Assembly: GCA_050246755.1 (NCBI GenBank)
Contig: JBFWVL010000001.1
Span: 832,001-896,000, forward strand
Source: Bacteriovoracia bacterium
Lineage (GTDB): Bacteria > Bdellovibrionota > UBA1018 > CAIPTA01
Length of the DNA: 64,000 nt
Direction: 5' to 3'
Shown here: piece by piece, positions 229 to 57,022 of the stretch
Numbering within the stretch: position 1 is the first letter of the stretch
Layout: every line of letters begins with the position of its first letter
Notes under the pieces: model-generated
The model's input: only the letters and a program-made list of their open reading frames with translations
Databases searched by the model: none
Told to the model about the DNA's origin: nothing
Made by a program: the position numbers and the translations under genes

Positions 229-537
229 CTACTCTGCCCGCCTTACCTTCTGCGGACCATTTTTTTCGCCTAGCGCCGAAGCTAAAATCTCTCTTTCGGT
301 AGCGTTAATAATGTCAATCAACTCGCTGGCAGGAATATCATATAGCCTAATCAGCACCTTTAGTTTCTTAACCGGTGGAAGCGCTATCCCTCTCTCGAAA
401 TTGGAAATAAATTGAGCCGAGGAATACCCTAACAGCCGAGCCACACGCCCTTGGGTAAGATTTTTAGCCGCACGGGCCGCCTGCAAATAAACACCCACTT
501 CTTCATATTTCCTAGAAATCAAATATTGTTTCGTCAT
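229..537 (-). CDS. XRE/Cro-C1 family helix-turn-helix transcriptional regulator
   Basis: 102 aa with the HTH_3 pattern LQAARAAKNLTQGRVARLLGYSSAQFISNFERGIALP; divergent from the desaturase. Confidence 0.9.
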   Translation of the reverse strand: MTKQYLISRKYEEVGVYLQAARAAKNLTQGRVARLLGYSSAQFISNFERGIALPPVKKLKVLIRLYDIPASELIDIINATEREILASALGEKNGPQKVRRAE

Positions 538-709
538 CGTCGTTCCAAGGTTAAGAATTTCTTCCCGTCACCCTCACTTAGTTACCGAAATGTGTACCGA
601 ATATATACTTAATATTAATCAGCCAAAAACTTTTTAAAATGGGCGTTTGCTTTTGCCATCAAATCACCTTTCTGCGCCGAATCAATGCGTTTCTATTTGA
701 CAGAACATC

Positions 710-732
710 AATATATTAAAGTTATATATATT
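710..732. promoter_or_regulatory. AT-rich inverted repeat (AATATAT-N9-ATATATT) just downstream of a TTGACA hexamer; candidate operator
   Basis: TTGACA at 697-702; palindrome arms at 710-716 and 726-732, in the divergent XRE/desaturase intergenic region; low complexity. Confidence 0.3.
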
Positions 733-805
733 CTCCTTAAGAGAGCAACGGGCTTAACCGATAGATCGGAGGCCACGGCACAAACGAAAGCGACATGGGT
801 ACTCA

Positions 806-1741
806 ATGCAAAAGGCCTCTTACTCTCGGATAACGCAACAACTCGACTTTTACCCCAACGCGGGCCCCCTGGTGGCTCACATTACTGGGGATGCATTTAT
901 TCTAACGGCATTTCTTTTTACCAATCACGGTAAACTCTATGCTGTATCGCAACTATTGCTTCCGCTTCTAATGTTTCGCGCCTTCGCCCTAATGCACGAT
1001 TGCGTGCACGGAAGCGCGACAAAAATAAAGGCACTAGGAGATGGCATCGGCATTGTCACGGGAGCCCTTTGCCTTCTTCCCTATGAGCCTTGGAAAAAAA
1101 TTCATCTGCTGCACCATAAGTGGACAGGCAATCTAGATCAAGACCCGTCCATGGGCCTTATTAAGCAGTTTCCGGCATTCAGTCGCGCGCGGGTGAGTAT
1201 TCTAAATTTCTGCTGGCGGCATAGGCTTCCCGGCCTGGCGATTTCCCAGCATTTTGTCTTCTGGGCGAAGTCTTATAAATTCGTGCTCACTGCCGAAAGT
1301 CGGGCGGAAAAAGTGAAAAACGCGCTTTCGATTCTTGTTCCGATACTTCTGTACGCAGTGTTTAGTTGGACGAAAAACGTTCCGGGCCTACTGCTTTACC
1401 TGGCAATGGTCGAGATCATTAACTTTCCTCACCACCTGCAAATGCCCATGCTAGAAGGAAGAAATTCTTTTCCCGTATATGAGCAACATCAGACGGCGCG
1501 CTCATGCCATTATCCAAGATGGTTTTCCCGGAATGCACTTAATAATTTTAATCTCCACATCGAGCACCATCTCTTTCCGCGCCTGCCCTGGTACCGATTA
1601 GACACCGCTCGCGATCTCGTACGCGCCGAACTCCAGGGCGAATATACGGCAGGCAATGATTGGATGCGGGAGAATCGACAATGGCCCATCGAAAAAGTTC
1701 TCGCTAAGAATCTGACCCCACCAGCAGAAAAGGCGGCATAG
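806..1741 (+). CDS. membrane-bound fatty acid desaturase family protein
   Basis: Three His boxes (HDCVH, HLLHH, HIEHH) and hydrophobic segments. Confidence 0.9.
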   Translation: MQKASYSRITQQLDFYPNAGPLVAHITGDAFILTAFLFTNHGKLYAVSQLLLPLLMFRAFALMHDCVHGSATKIKALGDGIGIVTGALCLLPYEPWKKIHLLHHKWTGNLDQDPSMGLIKQFPAFSRARVSILNFCWRHRLPGLAISQHFVFWAKSYKFVLTAESRAEKVKNALSILVPILLYAVFSWTKNVPGLLLYLAMVEIINFPHHLQMPMLEGRNSFPVYEQHQTARSCHYPRWFSRNALNNFNLHIEHHLFPRLPWYRLDTARDLVRAELQGEYTAGNDWMRENRQWPIEKVLAKNLTPPAEKAA

Positions 1742-1745
1742 GAAA

Positions 1746-2444
1746 ATGGAAAAATTATCAAACGTCTCCGCTTACAAACTATTCATATTGCCGGGACGCT
1801 GTCCGGCGGGCTTTGAGCACATATCGTTCCACAACGAGGTTTATGCTTTTTGGAAGCAATTCTGGGCAAGCGTGTTTAAAGAGAACAATACCCCAAGCGC
1901 TCCCGACGCCAATATCTTCTACCGCCAGGATTTCGTGGGTGTAGTGACGAAAGAAGAAAAAATCGTTGGTACGGTGTTCTTCACCGAAAACAATTTAGCG
2001 AGCGATGTAGTGTCCGAGATCGGCTACTTTTCCCGCCCCTATGTGAATGAGTTCAGCCAAAGAATGCGACGAGATAAAATTCATACGTTGTCGACCTTAG
2101 AAATGCTGACGGTGGCGCCTGAATTTCGAAAAAAAGTAGCAGGCATCTCATTTGGTACTGTCCTAATCGGAATCGTAATGGAAGCCTTTAAGGCTAGCGG
2201 CGCCGAGATCATTTTTGGCCCTGTGCGTACGGACAATGGCGCGGACAAGCTCCTGATCGATTTTGGCTGGAAACTAATTTCCGACGTCTACTCCATGCAC
2301 GGCACACCGGTGGCCCTCTCAGCCCTCTTTCGCGATGATCTCAAAGCAAGCGAAAGCTCTCTTCACCAAAAACTGGTCGAAGATCTCTGGCATAACCGCA
2401 TGGATTTGCGCAAATCTGATCTAAGGATGCTGAAGGCAGCCTAG
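1746..2444 (+). CDS. hypothetical protein with probable GNAT/acyltransferase (LuxI- or N-acyl amino acid synthase-like) fold
   Basis: Motif-A-like LEMLTVAPEFRKK and the C-terminal pattern ADKLLIDFGWK; 4 bp after the desaturase stop with an AAGGA RBS. Confidence 0.55.
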   Translation: MEKLSNVSAYKLFILPGRCPAGFEHISFHNEVYAFWKQFWASVFKENNTPSAPDANIFYRQDFVGVVTKEEKIVGTVFFTENNLASDVVSEIGYFSRPYVNEFSQRMRRDKIHTLSTLEMLTVAPEFRKKVAGISFGTVLIGIVMEAFKASGAEIIFGPVRTDNGADKLLIDFGWKLISDVYSMHGTPVALSALFRDDLKASESSLHQKLVEDLWHNRMDLRKSDLRMLKAA

Positions 2445-2449
2445 TTATT

Positions 2450-3160
2450 TTAGATAAAATGAATGCTCTCACCCGTCTGATCGCTGCTAGCAAGCACTTC
2501 TTTAGCAGTGGTGGAGGCTATCCAAGCAATCGCTTGGCCGTCCCGAAGTAGCGGAGCGATATGACCAAATGTTACTTTCACGATTTTTCGGTTTTCAGTC
2601 GCGCGCTCGCGCATATAGTGCTCTGGCCCCTCAAGAGGTAGGCACGTCTTCATTTTGGCAACCTTTTCCACATGATCAAGAATGATATTCGTAACGGATT
2701 TGGATCGCTCATAGAGGTAGTCCCAGCTACGTCCGAAAAAATCATCGATCGTATAGTCGGAAATATCAAAGAAGGTCAGATTACGAAAAAGCTGCGTTCC
2801 CTCGAAATCGAAAATTTCTACGATTTCCTCTCCCGTTAGCTGGTTAATGAACTCTTCTGGGATCGAGACGCGAAACCGGAAGGCAATCGACCGTAATGCC
2901 TGCCGGGGATTACGAAGGGCATCGATGCTTTCTTCTTCGAGGTCCTGGCAGATGAGAAAATAATCTCGAAGCTGCCTAAAATATTTTTCCTTGTCGGCAA
3001 TGGGTAGGAGACGGAAATGCTCTAGGCCACCCGCCGAAAAGGTACGCCTGTTGATCCCGTTACGAAGGAGGAAATGCTGAAATTGATTCACAAGCGCCAG
3101 GTATTGTTGATCAATCTCCCCTGACTGGAGCTCGTGAGCTTTTTTTAGGGAAACCTGCAT
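2450..3160 (-). CDS. hypothetical protein with a C-terminal PAS-like domain and no output domain
   Basis: IVEIFDFEGTQLFRNLTFFDISDYTIDDFFGRSWDYLY matches the PAS N-terminal pattern; ends in PAC-like beta strands (IAPLLRDGQAIAWIA). Confidence 0.55.
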   Translation of the reverse strand: MQVSLKKAHELQSGEIDQQYLALVNQFQHFLLRNGINRRTFSAGGLEHFRLLPIADKEKYFRQLRDYFLICQDLEEESIDALRNPRQALRSIAFRFRVSIPEEFINQLTGEEIVEIFDFEGTQLFRNLTFFDISDYTIDDFFGRSWDYLYERSKSVTNIILDHVEKVAKMKTCLPLEGPEHYMRERATENRKIVKVTFGHIAPLLRDGQAIAWIASTTAKEVLASSDQTGESIHFI

Positions 3161-3291: not shown

Positions 3292-4938
3292 TTAAACTAT
3301 TGCTCGCACAAACTTAGCCGCCTCTTGGGCCGCCGTGAAGCAGCTCTCGAAAGCTGGGCTCATATAATTATCCTGATTCGCAAAAGCAATCCGGCCATGA
3401 GGCGCCGAAATAAACTCAAACGTGCTTCCCGTGAGCATTCCCGGTTGCGCGAGCGGAAGAGAATGTCCCCAGCGGGTTACGCGGATGCCCTCGATGGAAT
3501 CGGCCGGAAGCCCGAGGCTCACGAGAGTTTTGGGAAATTCCTTTTCGATCTCATCTTTGATGCGCTTATGCGCCACCTCGCTCGAAACCAAGCTGCGCGC
3601 ACCCTCGAAGGGGTACGGCTTGTACAAAGTAAGCACGGATTGCCCTTTGCCACGATCGGCCCAGCCGGCGAATACGAAATCGGCCCAAGGACGATCCGTG
3701 CGGGAGCCGAACGTAGGCGAGGCCGGAACTTTTCCTTCGAGGGAGAAAATATCGAAGGCCGGTGCGGAAACGTTCGTCTTCAGCAATACGTTGCAAACCG
3801 CGTAGGCGCGGTAGAGCAATTCTTTCCAAGTATCGTCGCGATCGGAATCGAGCCCTTTCACGATATAACGGGCCACGTACTTGGGAGCGGCCATCACCAC
3901 GGCATTCGCCTTCAGTAAGCGGATTTTTCCCGTATTGTCTTCGTAGAGAATCTCTATCCCGTCGGCCACGTTCTTTACTTCGAGTACCATCGAGTGGGAT
4001 TTGAGATTCTCGGCTGGAAGTTTTTCCATTAAAGACTGATGGAGCGCCACGCCGATGGCGGCATTTCCACCGGGAAATGCGATCACGCCTTGGGTTTCGG
4101 CGCAGATGAAATTCAGGAACTGCGCGGCGGAAAGCTCGTCGAGCGAGCCCCCAAAAGAAGACCAGCAGTAGATCTGGAAAAACTCCTCCACGTGCGGATG
4201 AAGATCGGGGAATTTTTTTCCTAACCAAGCTTTGGCCGTTTGGTTGTCGAGGGCACGGAATTCTTCCTGGGTGAGGTCACTGTTTTGGGTCCAGGGAATT
4301 TCCGGGTAGGCTTCGCGGTAGATGCGGGAGAGCTCGGCGGTAACTTTTGCGACAGCCTCGCGGCGGGCGGGATCGGTTTCGCCCCGCCAGATTTTCTTGA
4401 GGCCGGAGAAGCTTACTTGCACATCTTCGGGATTTTCCCTCCGATAGGATGGGGCGATGCCGATTTCCGCAAATAATTTCTCGATCTCTCCGCCCTCTTC
4501 CGGCACGCCGATATATGCGGCGCCGATGGAAAAAGCCGAGCCACGGTATTCCTCGCCCTTAGAATTTCCCCCAAAGGCCGGCGCCTGCTCGAAAAGAACC
4601 GGAGATTGATCGCGAAGGGCATAGGCACTTAGTAGCCCCGACATTCCTCCCCCCACCACCGCCACCTTCGTGAACTCCGCGGAGGTTGGCCGCCCGCCTT
4701 TTCCGCGCACGTAATTTTCCACGTTCCAGAGGAGATCGTGCGGGCGGGAAATATCGTCGCCATTGAAAGCTCCGCTCCCGAAGGGGCCGGATATTTTCTG
4801 TATCGGGGAGGCAGAAGGGATTTCGAAAGTTTCTCCGGCGTGCGCCAGCGGGAATCGGAGCAAAGGAAATCCGCGGCTGAAGCCGTAGAGGCCCAAGCCC
4901 GCGGTAGCGCATCTTTGGAGGAACTTTCTTCGGTCCAT
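3292..4938 (-). CDS. Tat-exported FAD-dependent oxidoreductase (amine oxidase/protoporphyrinogen oxidase-like)
   Basis: Twin-arginine signal MDRRKFLQ; Rossmann motif VAVVGGGMSGL; RWGH motif; ATG overlaps the upstream TAA. Confidence 0.85.
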   Translation of the reverse strand: MDRRKFLQRCATAGLGLYGFSRGFPLLRFPLAHAGETFEIPSASPIQKISGPFGSGAFNGDDISRPHDLLWNVENYVRGKGGRPTSAEFTKVAVVGGGMSGLLSAYALRDQSPVLFEQAPAFGGNSKGEEYRGSAFSIGAAYIGVPEEGGEIEKLFAEIGIAPSYRRENPEDVQVSFSGLKKIWRGETDPARREAVAKVTAELSRIYREAYPEIPWTQNSDLTQEEFRALDNQTAKAWLGKKFPDLHPHVEEFFQIYCWSSFGGSLDELSAAQFLNFICAETQGVIAFPGGNAAIGVALHQSLMEKLPAENLKSHSMVLEVKNVADGIEILYEDNTGKIRLLKANAVVMAAPKYVARYIVKGLDSDRDDTWKELLYRAYAVCNVLLKTNVSAPAFDIFSLEGKVPASPTFGSRTDRPWADFVFAGWADRGKGQSVLTLYKPYPFEGARSLVSSEVAHKRIKDEIEKEFPKTLVSLGLPADSIEGIRVTRWGHSLPLAQPGMLTGSTFEFISAPHGRIAFANQDNYMSPAFESCFTAAQEAAKFVRAIV

Positions 4939-5222
4939 TAGATCGCCGTGCATTCCCAGACTACGGGATTTACCGATTCGTTCTCGCGGCAATCGTATTT
5001 GAGCTGGGTACGGTCTTTGAGAGAAATTTCCACGGCAAAACGCTCGTGGCCAGTCAGGGTTGCACTGATCGAATAGAATTGGCGGCGCACGTCTGGAGTT
5101 TGGCTGCGCTGAAACAATTCGGTGGCGGCGAGAACGGCATCGGACGATTGCTTGGCCACGGAGCCGTGCGCGTGGGCCAGCGTGGGGAGAACAGAGAGAG
5201 CGAGCACGAGGATAGCTTTCAT
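4938..5222 (-). CDS. small secreted hypothetical protein
   Basis: Signal peptide MKAILVLALSVLPTLAHA, then HGS; C-terminal Cys pair; TAATG coupling to the oxidoreductase. Confidence 0.75.
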   Translation of the reverse strand: MKAILVLALSVLPTLAHAHGSVAKQSSDAVLAATELFQRSQTPDVRRQFYSISATLTGHERFAVEISLKDRTQLKYDCRENESVNPVVWECTAI

Positions 5223-28144: not shown

Positions 28145-29092
28145 CTAAGCGGCTTTTTTTAAGGCACCGGCAACGGTACCCGCTTTTTTCATGGCTTTGT
28201 AAATCGTCTCCATTTGAAAAGGCTTCACTACGAAGCCATTTACCCCTTCTTTAATTGCCTCGGTAACTTCGGTGGCATTTTGCTCACCAGTTACCAGGAT
28301 CACGGGCGAGCCCTTCAATTCCTTATCGCGGCGAATTTTTTTTAGTAACTCAATCCCAGACATGTTTGGCATATGCCAGTCAGCTACCAGCAACGCGATC
28401 TGCGGAGAAGAGCCCGCCATCTTTTTGAATGCCGCTTCACCGTCTTCGCACTCATCCACGTTAATGTATCCCGCCAAATTGAGCGCATGGCGGCTGAGTT
28501 TACGTGAAGTGGCCGAATCGTCCACCACCAGCATACGGCTGTTCGTGGCAAAGCCAAACGAATCCACCGATTTCTGCTCATAAAATTTCTTGTCGAAGAG
28601 AGGGAAAACGAAACTGATCTCCTTATCGTTCGCAGTAAAGGTAAGAGTAACCACCTTCTCCACCATCACGCTCGCCCAGCCAAACAGTGCTTTTTGTGGT
28701 ACCGCTAACATCGAGTTCGGCTCGATCTTCACTTGTTTATCTGTGAGTTCTACTTCAGCCGCGTTATAAACGACTTTGCAGAATTCTTTTTCCGCGTCTT
28801 TCTGGATCTCGGCCATTTCGTCCGCGCTTTTTTCGGCGCCAGCTACCCACGCAAAGAATGCCTTTTCCTGCTCCGGGCTTCCGAAACCTACTGGAAACGC
28901 CGTGGTCGTTTTCATCGCGGTAAATCGCATCGCACAGAAGGGGCGCACTTCGGTAACTTGCTTGGCGGCCGTTTCAGTCGCGCCCGTGGGCTTAAGATCC
29001 AGCTTGTACTTAAATTTTACCCAATCAACGATGCCCTTCTGCAGATTAGCCATGGCACGTTTACTATTGGAAAAAACTTCAGCTGGAAACAT
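28145..29092 (-). CDS. CheY-like response regulator with an N-terminal CheX/CheC-like extension
   Basis: C-terminal receiver (LVVDDS, DWHMPNMSG, FVVKPF). Confidence 0.8.
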   Translation of the reverse strand: MFPAEVFSNSKRAMANLQKGIVDWVKFKYKLDLKPTGATETAAKQVTEVRPFCAMRFTAMKTTTAFPVGFGSPEQEKAFFAWVAGAEKSADEMAEIQKDAEKEFCKVVYNAAEVELTDKQVKIEPNSMLAVPQKALFGWASVMVEKVVTLTFTANDKEISFVFPLFDKKFYEQKSVDSFGFATNSRMLVVDDSATSRKLSRHALNLAGYINVDECEDGEAAFKKMAGSSPQIALLVADWHMPNMSGIELLKKIRRDKELKGSPVILVTGEQNATEVTEAIKEGVNGFVVKPFQMETIYKAMKKAGTVAGALKKAA

Positions 29093-29130: not shown

Positions 29131-29158
29131 CTATCGGTGCGTTTACTTATCGGCTTTA
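29131..29158 (-). promoter_or_regulatory. possible sigma28 (FliA) promoter
   Basis: Minus strand TAAAG-N15-ACCGATAG, with an overlapping GCCGATAA, upstream of the chemotaxis genes. Confidence 0.4.
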
Positions 29159-49096: not shown

Positions 49097-49275
49097 GGTT
49101 AAATTCTCCTAGAGGTCGTTATAGTAAAAATCCTTCTTGTTAATCCTTGGCCAGAAGTCGCTTTTCATTTCTGTGTCGATCTCGTCGGCGATAGGGAAAA
49201 TAAGCGCAGCCAACGATTTTGTAAAATGCATAATTACACGTTTAATATACTTATATAGAATATATAAAACGACGC

Positions 49276-56263: not shown

Positions 56264-57022
56264 ATGACCTTCGCCGAAATCATCTTTTTGGTGAGGCCAT
56301 ATTTTTTTTGGTGTTTCCTCGCTTTTTTATTTTTATGGGAGCGCTGTTTCCCGGCCAATCAACCCGCTTCCCGGAATTTCTGGTGGACGCGAGCCCTGTT
56401 ATTTTTCGGCGTGCGCATTTTCGGAGTTCTATGGGTGAGAAGTCTCATGAACACTCATCTCACCGGACTCCACCCGTTCTTTTCCCTAAAAAATATCCCC
56501 ATTTTACCTGGGGCAATGATCAGTATTTTTGTCTTCACTTTTTTTCACTACTGGTGGCATCGCCTTCGTCACCGGAGCCATTTCGTTTGGCGTACTTTTC
56601 ATCAGATTCATCACAGTCCCGCCAGAGTGGAACTATTGACGAACTACTACAGCCACCTAACGGACTTTCTCGCCAACTTCGCCCTGTTTAATTTCGTTTG
56701 CGTTTTTCTTCTCGAGCTATCTATTCCTCAATTAATCTGCGCCAATATTTTAGACGGCGCCATAAACGCCTTTGCTCACGCCAACGTGAACACGCCCCGG
56801 TGGCTAGGCTACTTCATAATACGGCCGGCCCAGCATCGCCTGCACCACCAGCAGAATCTCCATTACTATAACTTTGGGATGATTCCGATTTGGGACCTGC
56901 TGTTTGGCACGTTCAAAAATCCCTTGAAACACGAAGCCCCCTGCGGATTTTCGCTGACGCAGGAATTTCAGCTCAAAGAAATGCTGCTCTTCAAGGAAAT
57001 TGGGGCACAGAGGAAAATCTAG
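56264..57022 (+). CDS. sterol desaturase / fatty acid hydroxylase family protein
   Basis: YWWHRLRH, HQIHHS, AHAN, HRLHH and WDLLFGTF motifs. Confidence 0.92.
   Translation: MTFAEIIFLVRPYFFWCFLAFLFLWERCFPANQPASRNFWWTRALLFFGVRIFGVLWVRSLMNTHLTGLHPFFSLKNIPILPGAMISIFVFTFFHYWWHRLRHRSHFVWRTFHQIHHSPARVELLTNYYSHLTDFLANFALFNFVCVFLLELSIPQLICANILDGAINAFAHANVNTPRWLGYFIIRPAQHRLHHQQNLHYYNFGMIPIWDLLFGTFKNPLKHEAPCGFSLTQEFQLKEMLLFKEIGAQRKI

Follow-up and report, generated by a model that had tools for sequence, protein, structure and literature searches.

Genes and features of the locus

The four-gene cassette described here lies at positions 229 to 3,160 of a 64,000-nucleotide (nt) stretch of DNA from a Bacteriovoracia bacterium of the phylum Bdellovibrionota, to which its nearest relatives also point; the whole stretch is referred to as the window, and coordinates are positions within it. 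The cassette encodes an XRE regulator, a membrane desaturase-family enzyme, a GNAT acyltransferase, and a stand-alone PAS protein (Table 1), and it is one copy of a synthase-sensor cassette conserved in Bdellovibrionota, in which linkage has been kept through many gene orders. The original prediction, made from the sequence alone, had proposed that these genes form a lipid-signal circuit; its coordinates, strands, and lengths for the four open reading frames (ORFs) were correct, as were the gaps of 4 nt (1742-1745) between the desaturase and GNAT genes and 5 nt (2445-2449) between the GNAT and PAS genes, which were read from the sequence. No paralogues of the four genes were found elsewhere in the 64-kb window. 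The GC content was 47% in the first 2 kb and 50 to 57% in the next 14 kb. The cassette is real, conserved, and apparently undescribed, and a literature search that covered few subscription papers found no description of it.

Table 1. Coordinates of the cassette genes and of the sites in the intergenic region
Feature	Position	Strand	Basis or remark
XRE (HTH_3) regulator, 102 amino acids (aa)	229..537	-	Pfam HTH_3, E = 2.8e-9; candidate DNA-binding output
Degenerate dyad TATAT-N7-ATTAA, XRE promoter side	602..618		Weak operator candidate
Symmetric dyad TATAT-N7-ATATA, preceding the -35 box by 8 nt	712..728		Weak operator candidate
FliA (sigma-28) promoter match TTAAG-N16-CCGATA, 42 nt upstream of the desaturase gene	737..763	+	Perfect consensus match
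Membrane desaturase-family diiron enzyme, 311 aa	806..1741	+	PF00487, E = 4.5e-33
Extended GNAT acyltransferase, 232 aa, unnamed family	1746..2444	+	AlphaFold2 model and fold searches
Stand-alone sensor, N-terminal helical domain and PAS, 236 aa	2450..3160	-	AlphaFold2 model and fold searches

Conservation of the cassette in related loci

When GTDB genomes were scanned once with a degenerate DNA motif of the GNAT gene, 18 loci were identified (numbered with the prefix L). Two of these, L003 and L014, proved to be false positives and were excluded from the counts, leaving 16 true loci with 17 GNAT genes. These loci are a sample, because the scan motif recovers only 34 to 49 of 160 known family proteins. 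A PAS gene was present within 1.6 kb of the GNAT gene in all 16 true loci and was absent from both false-positive loci, and an XRE gene was present in 12 of the 16, being the immediate neighbor of the PAS gene in all 12 and often overlapping it. The heme-oxygenase-like enzyme (PF14518) was found in 13 loci, a desaturase in 4, and either one in 15; L016 had a B12 radical SAM enzyme in place of the diiron oxidase. In the 220 kb of these loci, no PAS, XRE, or heme-oxygenase-like homologues were found outside the cassettes. The clustering of GNAT and PAS genes therefore exceeds chance, and the neighborhood survey recovered the predicted co-occurrence of the genes in other genomes and the predicted XRE-GNAT-PAS core with exchangeable tailoring enzymes. 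It is nearly certain that the four genes constitute a functional module. In the closest subfamily, there were also six cases in which GNAT and PAS homologues lay on contigs of equal size, the matching size suggesting co-location.

Gene order was highly variable, with 14 arrangements among 17 cassettes as read from the coordinates. The GNAT and PAS genes were directly tail to tail in 2 of 17 related cassettes (L005, with a 33-nt gap, and L013, with a 4-nt overlap), so that a conserved convergent junction was ruled out and the parallel drawn earlier with convergent luxI/luxR pairs fell away. Accessory genes included SAM methyltransferases in L002 and L010 and PaaK-like ligases in both cassettes of L008 (2 of 17 cassettes, in one genome). 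The segment L008:887-9509 contained two tandem cassettes around a major facilitator superfamily (MFS) transporter gene, each with its PaaK-like coenzyme A (CoA) ligase, and their two PAS proteins were sister sequences. Median pairwise identity was 26% for the GNAT and 23% for the PAS proteins, from which trees were built with FastTree; L011 and L015, and likewise L004 and L012, were close kin. The PADLOC matches were all generic (HTH, methyltransferase, and radical SAM proteins), so a defense system was rejected. No relatives of the GNAT protein were found in plasmid and phage collections.

L010 is a locus with a pair of PAS genes but without an XRE gene; its segment L010:5879-11058 shares flanking genes (lytic transglycosylase and thioredoxin) with the Bd2462-Bd2468 region of Bdellovibrio bacteriovorus HD100. 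The hypothetical genes Bd2464, Bd2465, and Bd2467 in that region are of PAS-like size and may be synthase-less "solo" PAS genes. Published transcriptome data show a FliA promoter for Bd2465, whose expression is high in attack phase (6883 versus 145 reads per kilobase per million [RPKM]), and Bd2467 is high in growth phase (16 versus 1626 RPKM) (PMC3627812).

The GNAT protein and its family

The GNAT and PAS proteins represent large unnamed families, mostly from Bdellovibrionota, and neither protein had a meaningful match in Pfam or NCBIfam. In a profile search with the GNAT family, E values of ≤0.001 were obtained for 781 clusters (50% identity level), 481 of which had E values of ≤1e-10. In an alignment of 148 sequences, made up of the query, four close relatives, and 143 of the 150 top matches, no member had a meaningful Pfam match, and the residues W36, W40, F58, R60, Y94, E119, R161, G174, and W215 were nearly invariant. 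E119 (nt 2100-2102) lies on beta-4, is kept in 143 of the 148 members, and is a candidate general base. A Glu at this GNAT position acts as the base in polyamine acetyltransferases.

The predicted GNAT fold was recovered with an AlphaFold2 model (predicted local distance difference test [pLDDT] score, 95.4) and Foldseek. The motif LTVAPEFRKK is located at residues 121 to 130 of the 232, motif A lies on beta-4/alpha-3 as in the GNAT superfamily, and there were 242 PDB matches with E values of ≤0.001 and Z scores up to 16.7. Foldseek ranked FeeM first (E = 2.7e-7; TM scores, 0.57/0.68), followed by Naa60, MesI, and RpaI. The protein has the extended GNAT fold of FeeM (2g0b; Z score, 15.5; root-mean-square deviation [RMSD], 3.0; 174 residues aligned), and RpaI aligned over 190 residues with Z scores of 14.3 to 14.7; the aligned span was 174 to 191 residues for FeeM and RpaI, versus approximately 145 for small GNATs. 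The best named structural neighbors in the Atlas were Acetyltransf_5 (TM score, 0.73) and FeeM (TM score, 0.64 to 0.70). Sequence searches of the PDB with alignments A1 and A2 and with the desaturase gave no match; the single short PDB match of the GNAT-family alignment, 3vu0, was dismissed as likely spurious.

The original prediction had called the synthase LuxI-like, which held for the fold and failed for the catalytic residues. The LuxI motifs, taken from alignments of TraI, LasI, EsaI, TofI, MesI, and BjaI, were R-x3-F-x5-W, E-x-D-x-[YF]-D, a beta-3 Arg, and E-x-[ST]-R-[FY]. E.D.[YF]D was found in none of the 148 members, E.[ST]R[FY] in 1, and the loose pattern R...F..W, sought at any position of the sequence, in 15. 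At the presumed equivalent columns, in a register anchored on MesI, the LuxI Arg, Trp, Glu, and Arg were each present in 0 of 148 members; the column matching the LuxI beta-4 Glu was Ser or Thr in 140 of 148, with the conserved Glu119 two places later. None of the 148 members matched the LuxI profile (Pfam Autoind_synth, E ≤ 0.01) or the Pfam FeeM profile (PF21926), and hhalign of the family to TraI gave a probability of 0.9%. Because the LuxI catalytic residues are missing, synthesis of N-acyl-homoserine lactones was rejected as unlikely. Judged by its residues, the GNAT protein is no LuxI and would resemble an amine N-acyltransferase in its working.

Two further features of the family were noted. 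In P0138 (466 aa), a GNAT-family protein and the heme-oxygenase-like oxidase are naturally fused. The C termini of the GNAT, oxidase, and desaturase proteins often consist of basic residues followed by Ala or Ala-Ala, the last column being Ala in 122 of 148 GNAT members. Such an ending resembles a ClpXP-type degradation tag and by analogy suggests rapid turnover of the cassette proteins.

The diiron oxidase

The three predicted His boxes of the desaturase (HDCVH64, HLLHH100, and HIEHH251; nt 995-1009, 1103-1117, and 1556-1570) were located, and together with the PF00487 match they place the enzyme in the membrane desaturase superfamily. It belongs to none of the characterized subfamilies DesA, GntB, and CrtW, scoring 17 to 56 bits against cutoffs of 350 to 500, and it fell below every NCBIfam subfamily cutoff. 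This desaturase fills the place that the heme-oxygenase-like oxidase has in most relatives: the window, L005, and L013 have a desaturase and no heme-oxygenase-like gene, and the window enzyme is 56% identical to the L005 copy and 38% identical to the L013 copy. The desaturases of L007 and L009 represent another subfamily, which comes closer to the GntB hydroxylase model without reaching its cutoff, and co-occur with the heme-oxygenase-like enzyme.

The heme-oxygenase-like relatives keep E74, H77, E128, H157, D161, and H164, the full 3-His/3-carboxylate set described for heme-oxygenase-like diiron oxidases (PMC13108848). Their nearest PDB sequence match was the uncharacterized protein 3dde (E = 1.8e-14), with MboA at an E value of 0.0026; there was no NCBIfam match, and the literature search found no report of a heme-oxygenase-like oxidase coupled to a GNAT. 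Two unrelated enzyme classes performing one reaction have a parallel in UndA and UndB, which both decarboxylate. The reactions reported for heme-oxygenase-like diiron oxidases include decarboxylation, desaturation, and N-oxygenation of fatty acids and amino acids (PMC13108848), and membrane desaturase-like enzymes and MboA perform similar chemistry (PMC13185094). The enzyme swap suggests that the conserved need is diiron oxidation. Since a desaturase occurs in 4 of 16 loci and the heme-oxygenase-like enzyme in 13, the conserved step is diiron oxidation and not acyl-chain desaturation as such.

The PAS protein and the XRE regulator

The PAS fold suggested earlier was likewise obtained with AlphaFold2 (pLDDT score, 87.2) and Foldseek, with matches only to PAS and to the N-terminal helical part; the model is helical at approximately residues 1 to 100 and has a PAS domain at approximately residues 109 to 222 (nt 2495-2836). 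The PAS fold aligned with a Z score of 9.8 and an RMSD of 2.5 over 104 residues, all of the approximately 40 Foldseek matches listed were PAS or LOV proteins (best E value, 2e-5), and PAS_9 was an Atlas feature neighbor at 0.96. A PezA helical-bundle match to residues 1 to 77 (Z score, 8.2) was dismissed as lying within the helical-bundle background. The protein is soluble, having no transmembrane segment (maximum KD19, 0.78), and Q123, Y136, L149, R152, H181, and E185 were invariant across 31 sequences; its profile gave no alignment with a canonical kinase PAS sequence. The XRE protein of the window has the family motif Q-F-I-S-N-x-E-R-G and is 27 to 42% identical to the 12 XRE proteins of the related cassettes.

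Regulatory DNA

In 29 hand-picked upstream regions, consisting of 18 synthase-operon regions and 11 others, the perfect dyad TAAAY-N7-RTTTA was present in 8 of the 18 and none of the 11 (shuffle mean, 0.09; maximum, 1). Because this pattern was derived from the same data, the best dyad of any kind was also compared. It occurred in 9 of the 29 regions (8 if one twin is left out), and 100 shuffles gave a mean of 4.2 and a maximum of 7. A total of 15 perfect dyads occurred in 284 kb: 9 in synthase promoters, 3 before adjacent two-component genes in L004 and L012, 2 inside genes near the L002 cassette promoters, and 1 unexplained. The three two-component sites (L004:7921, L004:9327, and L012:5218) lie upstream of histidine kinase or response regulator genes and mark a possible output regulon. 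No perfect TAAAY-N7-RTTTA was found in the window, where six one-mismatch sites, a chance level, were all outside the cassette. The dyad on the XRE promoter side has two mismatches and scored 5.5 bits with the position weight matrix, versus 12 to 19 for true sites, and the symmetric dyad, found by a post hoc pattern search, scored 5.4 bits. An AT-rich intergenic stretch at 49241-49268 resembles these degenerate dyads, and its adjoining ORFs have no Pfam match.

The promoter match before the desaturase gene agrees fully with the FliA attack-phase consensus of Bdellovibrio, TTAAG-N16-CCGATA (PMC3627812). It is the sole site in the 64 kb with no mismatch, and 150 shuffles of the upstream sequences produced no perfect match. 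Other FliA matches were found for the first L008 cassette (L008a; one mismatch) and L005 (two mismatches), and the remaining 15 regions had none. Judging from this promoter, FliA probably drives the synthase operon of the window during the free-swimming attack phase; because of the 15 regions lacking a match, attack-phase expression is claimed for the subfamily of the window only. A one-mismatch FliA-type promoter at 29132-29158 (minus strand) lies upstream of a CheY-like response regulator gene at 28145-29092. Scans of the window for sigma-70 promoters and terminators gave chance-level results.

Proposed mechanism and alternatives

The gene linkage, the folds, the pattern of catalytic residues, the enrichment of the dyad, and the match to the promoter consensus were computed; a product, its lipid nature, its binding by PAS, PAS-XRE contact, and signaling are inferred. 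The reading that we favor, with a probability of roughly 0.45, is that the synthase and the oxidase make an oxidized N-acyl amide, which the PAS protein binds to control the XRE regulator, in a split MmyB/LuxR-like circuit. The GNAT would move an acyl group from acyl-CoA or an acyl-acyl carrier protein (acyl-ACP) onto a small amine, with E119 as the base; the diiron enzyme would desaturate, hydroxylate, or oxidatively decarboxylate the product or its precursor; and methyltransferases or CoA ligases could vary the product further. The PAS domain would then bind the product and alter DNA binding by XRE through direct contact, like a split MmyB/MltR, and XRE would act at the dyad in the synthase promoter, closing a feedback loop, and in some loci also at neighboring two-component genes. 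Production of a small acylated metabolite by the cassette is likely, and we lean slightly toward its binding by the PAS protein. Control of XRE by PAS is given a little under even odds, and a role of the product as a cell-to-cell signal is doubtful.

Several results weigh against this reading. Small generic GNATs equaled or exceeded FeeM in Z score (1xeb, 16.7; ElaA, 16.3; FeeM, 15.5). The XRE gene of the window has no direct PAS neighbor, and 4 of the 16 loci have no XRE gene in the available DNA, L005 being a 3.5-kb contig. The scan, being anchored on GNAT, was blind to PAS-XRE pairs without a GNAT gene. Co-divergence of GNAT and PAS was weak (Mantel r = 0.28, P = 0.018; without close pairs, r = 0.24, P = 0.097). 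The reader of the dyad is unproven, because the XRE-less loci L001 and L007 still carry it, and the window dyads, with two mismatches, are at a level met by chance in about half of such regions. FliA matches with up to two mismatches were found in 3 of the 18 regions, versus a shuffle mean of 0.57 and a maximum of 4.

The extended fold and the gene neighbors also bear on detoxification or catabolism, in which the PAS protein would sense an outside compound, prey-derived or environmental, the XRE would induce the operon, and the oxidase and GNAT would inactivate the compound through oxidation and acylation. Substrate-responsive regulators beside modifying enzymes are common, generic acetyltransferases match FeeM in Z score, and L006 and L008 have an MFS transporter gene close to the cassette; predation is reported to be inhibited by prey compounds, quinolones and indole among them (PMC8461301). 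This explanation is nevertheless improbable: the FeeM/RpaI-like alignment extends well beyond that of small GNATs, the co-oriented CoA ligases and methyltransferases, like the neighboring B12 radical SAM enzyme, have building functions, and the dyad also precedes neighboring kinase/regulator genes in L004 and L012.

It is similarly improbable that the product is an effector, either an N-acyl amino acid with antibacterial action or a membrane aminolipid modified in the manner of ornithine lipids, with PAS/XRE as a precursor-responsive pathway switch. A scan of 110 proteins from the cassettes and their flanks revealed no O-acyltransferase or ACP gene, and the extreme divergence of GNAT and PAS and the varied tailoring would suit signal diversification better than a structural lipid. 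The best named Atlas neighbors of the GNAT, Acetyltransf_5 and FeeM, nevertheless favor such a product, as do reports that FeeM-type enzymes make surface-active, hemolytic N-acyl amino acids (PMC4897644) and the proposal that MmyB-type regulators respond to pathway precursors (PMC3406030).

Still less probable is an arrangement in which PAS relays to a kinase or other partner and XRE is a plain autoregulator, or in which the GNAT acylates a protein. The former would fit the presence of PAS in 16 of 16 loci and of XRE in 12, the pair of PAS genes in L010, where XRE is missing, and the histidine kinases or response regulators flanking L004, L012, L017, and L018, but XRE lies directly beside PAS in 12 of 12 loci. 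For the latter, protein N-acetyltransferases such as Naa60 ranked high in Foldseek, whereas a diiron oxidase fused to or cotranscribed with the GNAT points to small-molecule chemistry.

Within the favored N-acyl amide circuit, the product might be an endogenous Bdellovibrionota autoinducer: the GNAT and the swappable diiron oxidase would make lineage-specific oxidized acyl amides, possibly enamides formed through oxidative decarboxylation, which a split PAS/XRE receptor would read at TAAAY-N7-RTTTA for attack-phase density sensing. We regard this version as unlikely. For possible signaling among Bdellovibrio-like predators, the cassette offers candidates for the synthase, receptor, regulator, operator, and promoter; a 2011 paper states that group predation had not been seen in laboratory Bdellovibrio (PMC3189940). 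The cassette further delineates a GNAT family without a Pfam name, an uncharacterized heme-oxygenase-like oxidase subfamily, and a natural swap of two unrelated diiron enzyme classes, whose interest for natural-product chemistry holds even without a signaling role.

Neighboring genes

The flanking genes of the window (flavin amine oxidase, M23 peptidase, and enoyl reductase) are as a rule absent beside related cassettes and were left out of the cassette parts. The flavin amine-oxidase-like gene at 3292-4992 (minus strand), which encodes a twin-arginine-like leader, immediately precedes the PAS gene in the same orientation and was not seen beside related cassettes. A separate fatty acid hydroxylase family gene (PF04116) at 56264-57022 (plus strand) has no linkage to the cassette.

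Comparison with known systems

Like LuxI/LuxR systems, including the CoA-dependent RpaI, BjaI, and MesI, the cassette links a GNAT-fold synthase to a ligand-binding regulator and has a dyad in the synthase promoter, and the beta-4/motif A register of its GNAT aligns with that of MesI. Unlike these systems, it lacks the LuxI catalytic motifs and LuxR, its receptor and DNA-binding parts are separate genes, and a diiron oxidase is almost always present.

The fee cluster likewise combines a synthase with subsequent oxidative tailoring, and FeeM was the top Foldseek match of the cassette GNAT. Identity to FeeM is 12 to 13%, however, and the cassette GNAT has no PF21926 match; the cassette also differs in its dedicated PAS/XRE pair, and no ACP gene was seen. 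The catalytic residue of FeeM is Glu95 (PMC4897644); the conserved Glu of the cassette GNAT seems to lie two residues later on beta-4, in a register inferred from LuxI and not from a FeeM alignment.

MltR is a fused XRE-PAS regulator that binds a fatty acid (PMC3406030), and MmyB/MltR regulators resemble the cassette in combining an XRE DNA-binding domain and a PAS-type ligand domain beside biosynthetic genes. MltR is a single polypeptide found mainly in actinomycetes; the cassette uses two genes, which stand apart in the window and in all 12 loci that carry an XRE gene (fused forms were not searched for elsewhere). The cassette proteins had no MmyB-type Pfam match, and 3pxp was not among the fold matches listed. 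Finally, the oxidase of the relatives shares the 3-His/3-carboxylate ligand set of UndA, BesC, and MboA and differs in its distance from MboA in sequence and in its coupling to a GNAT.

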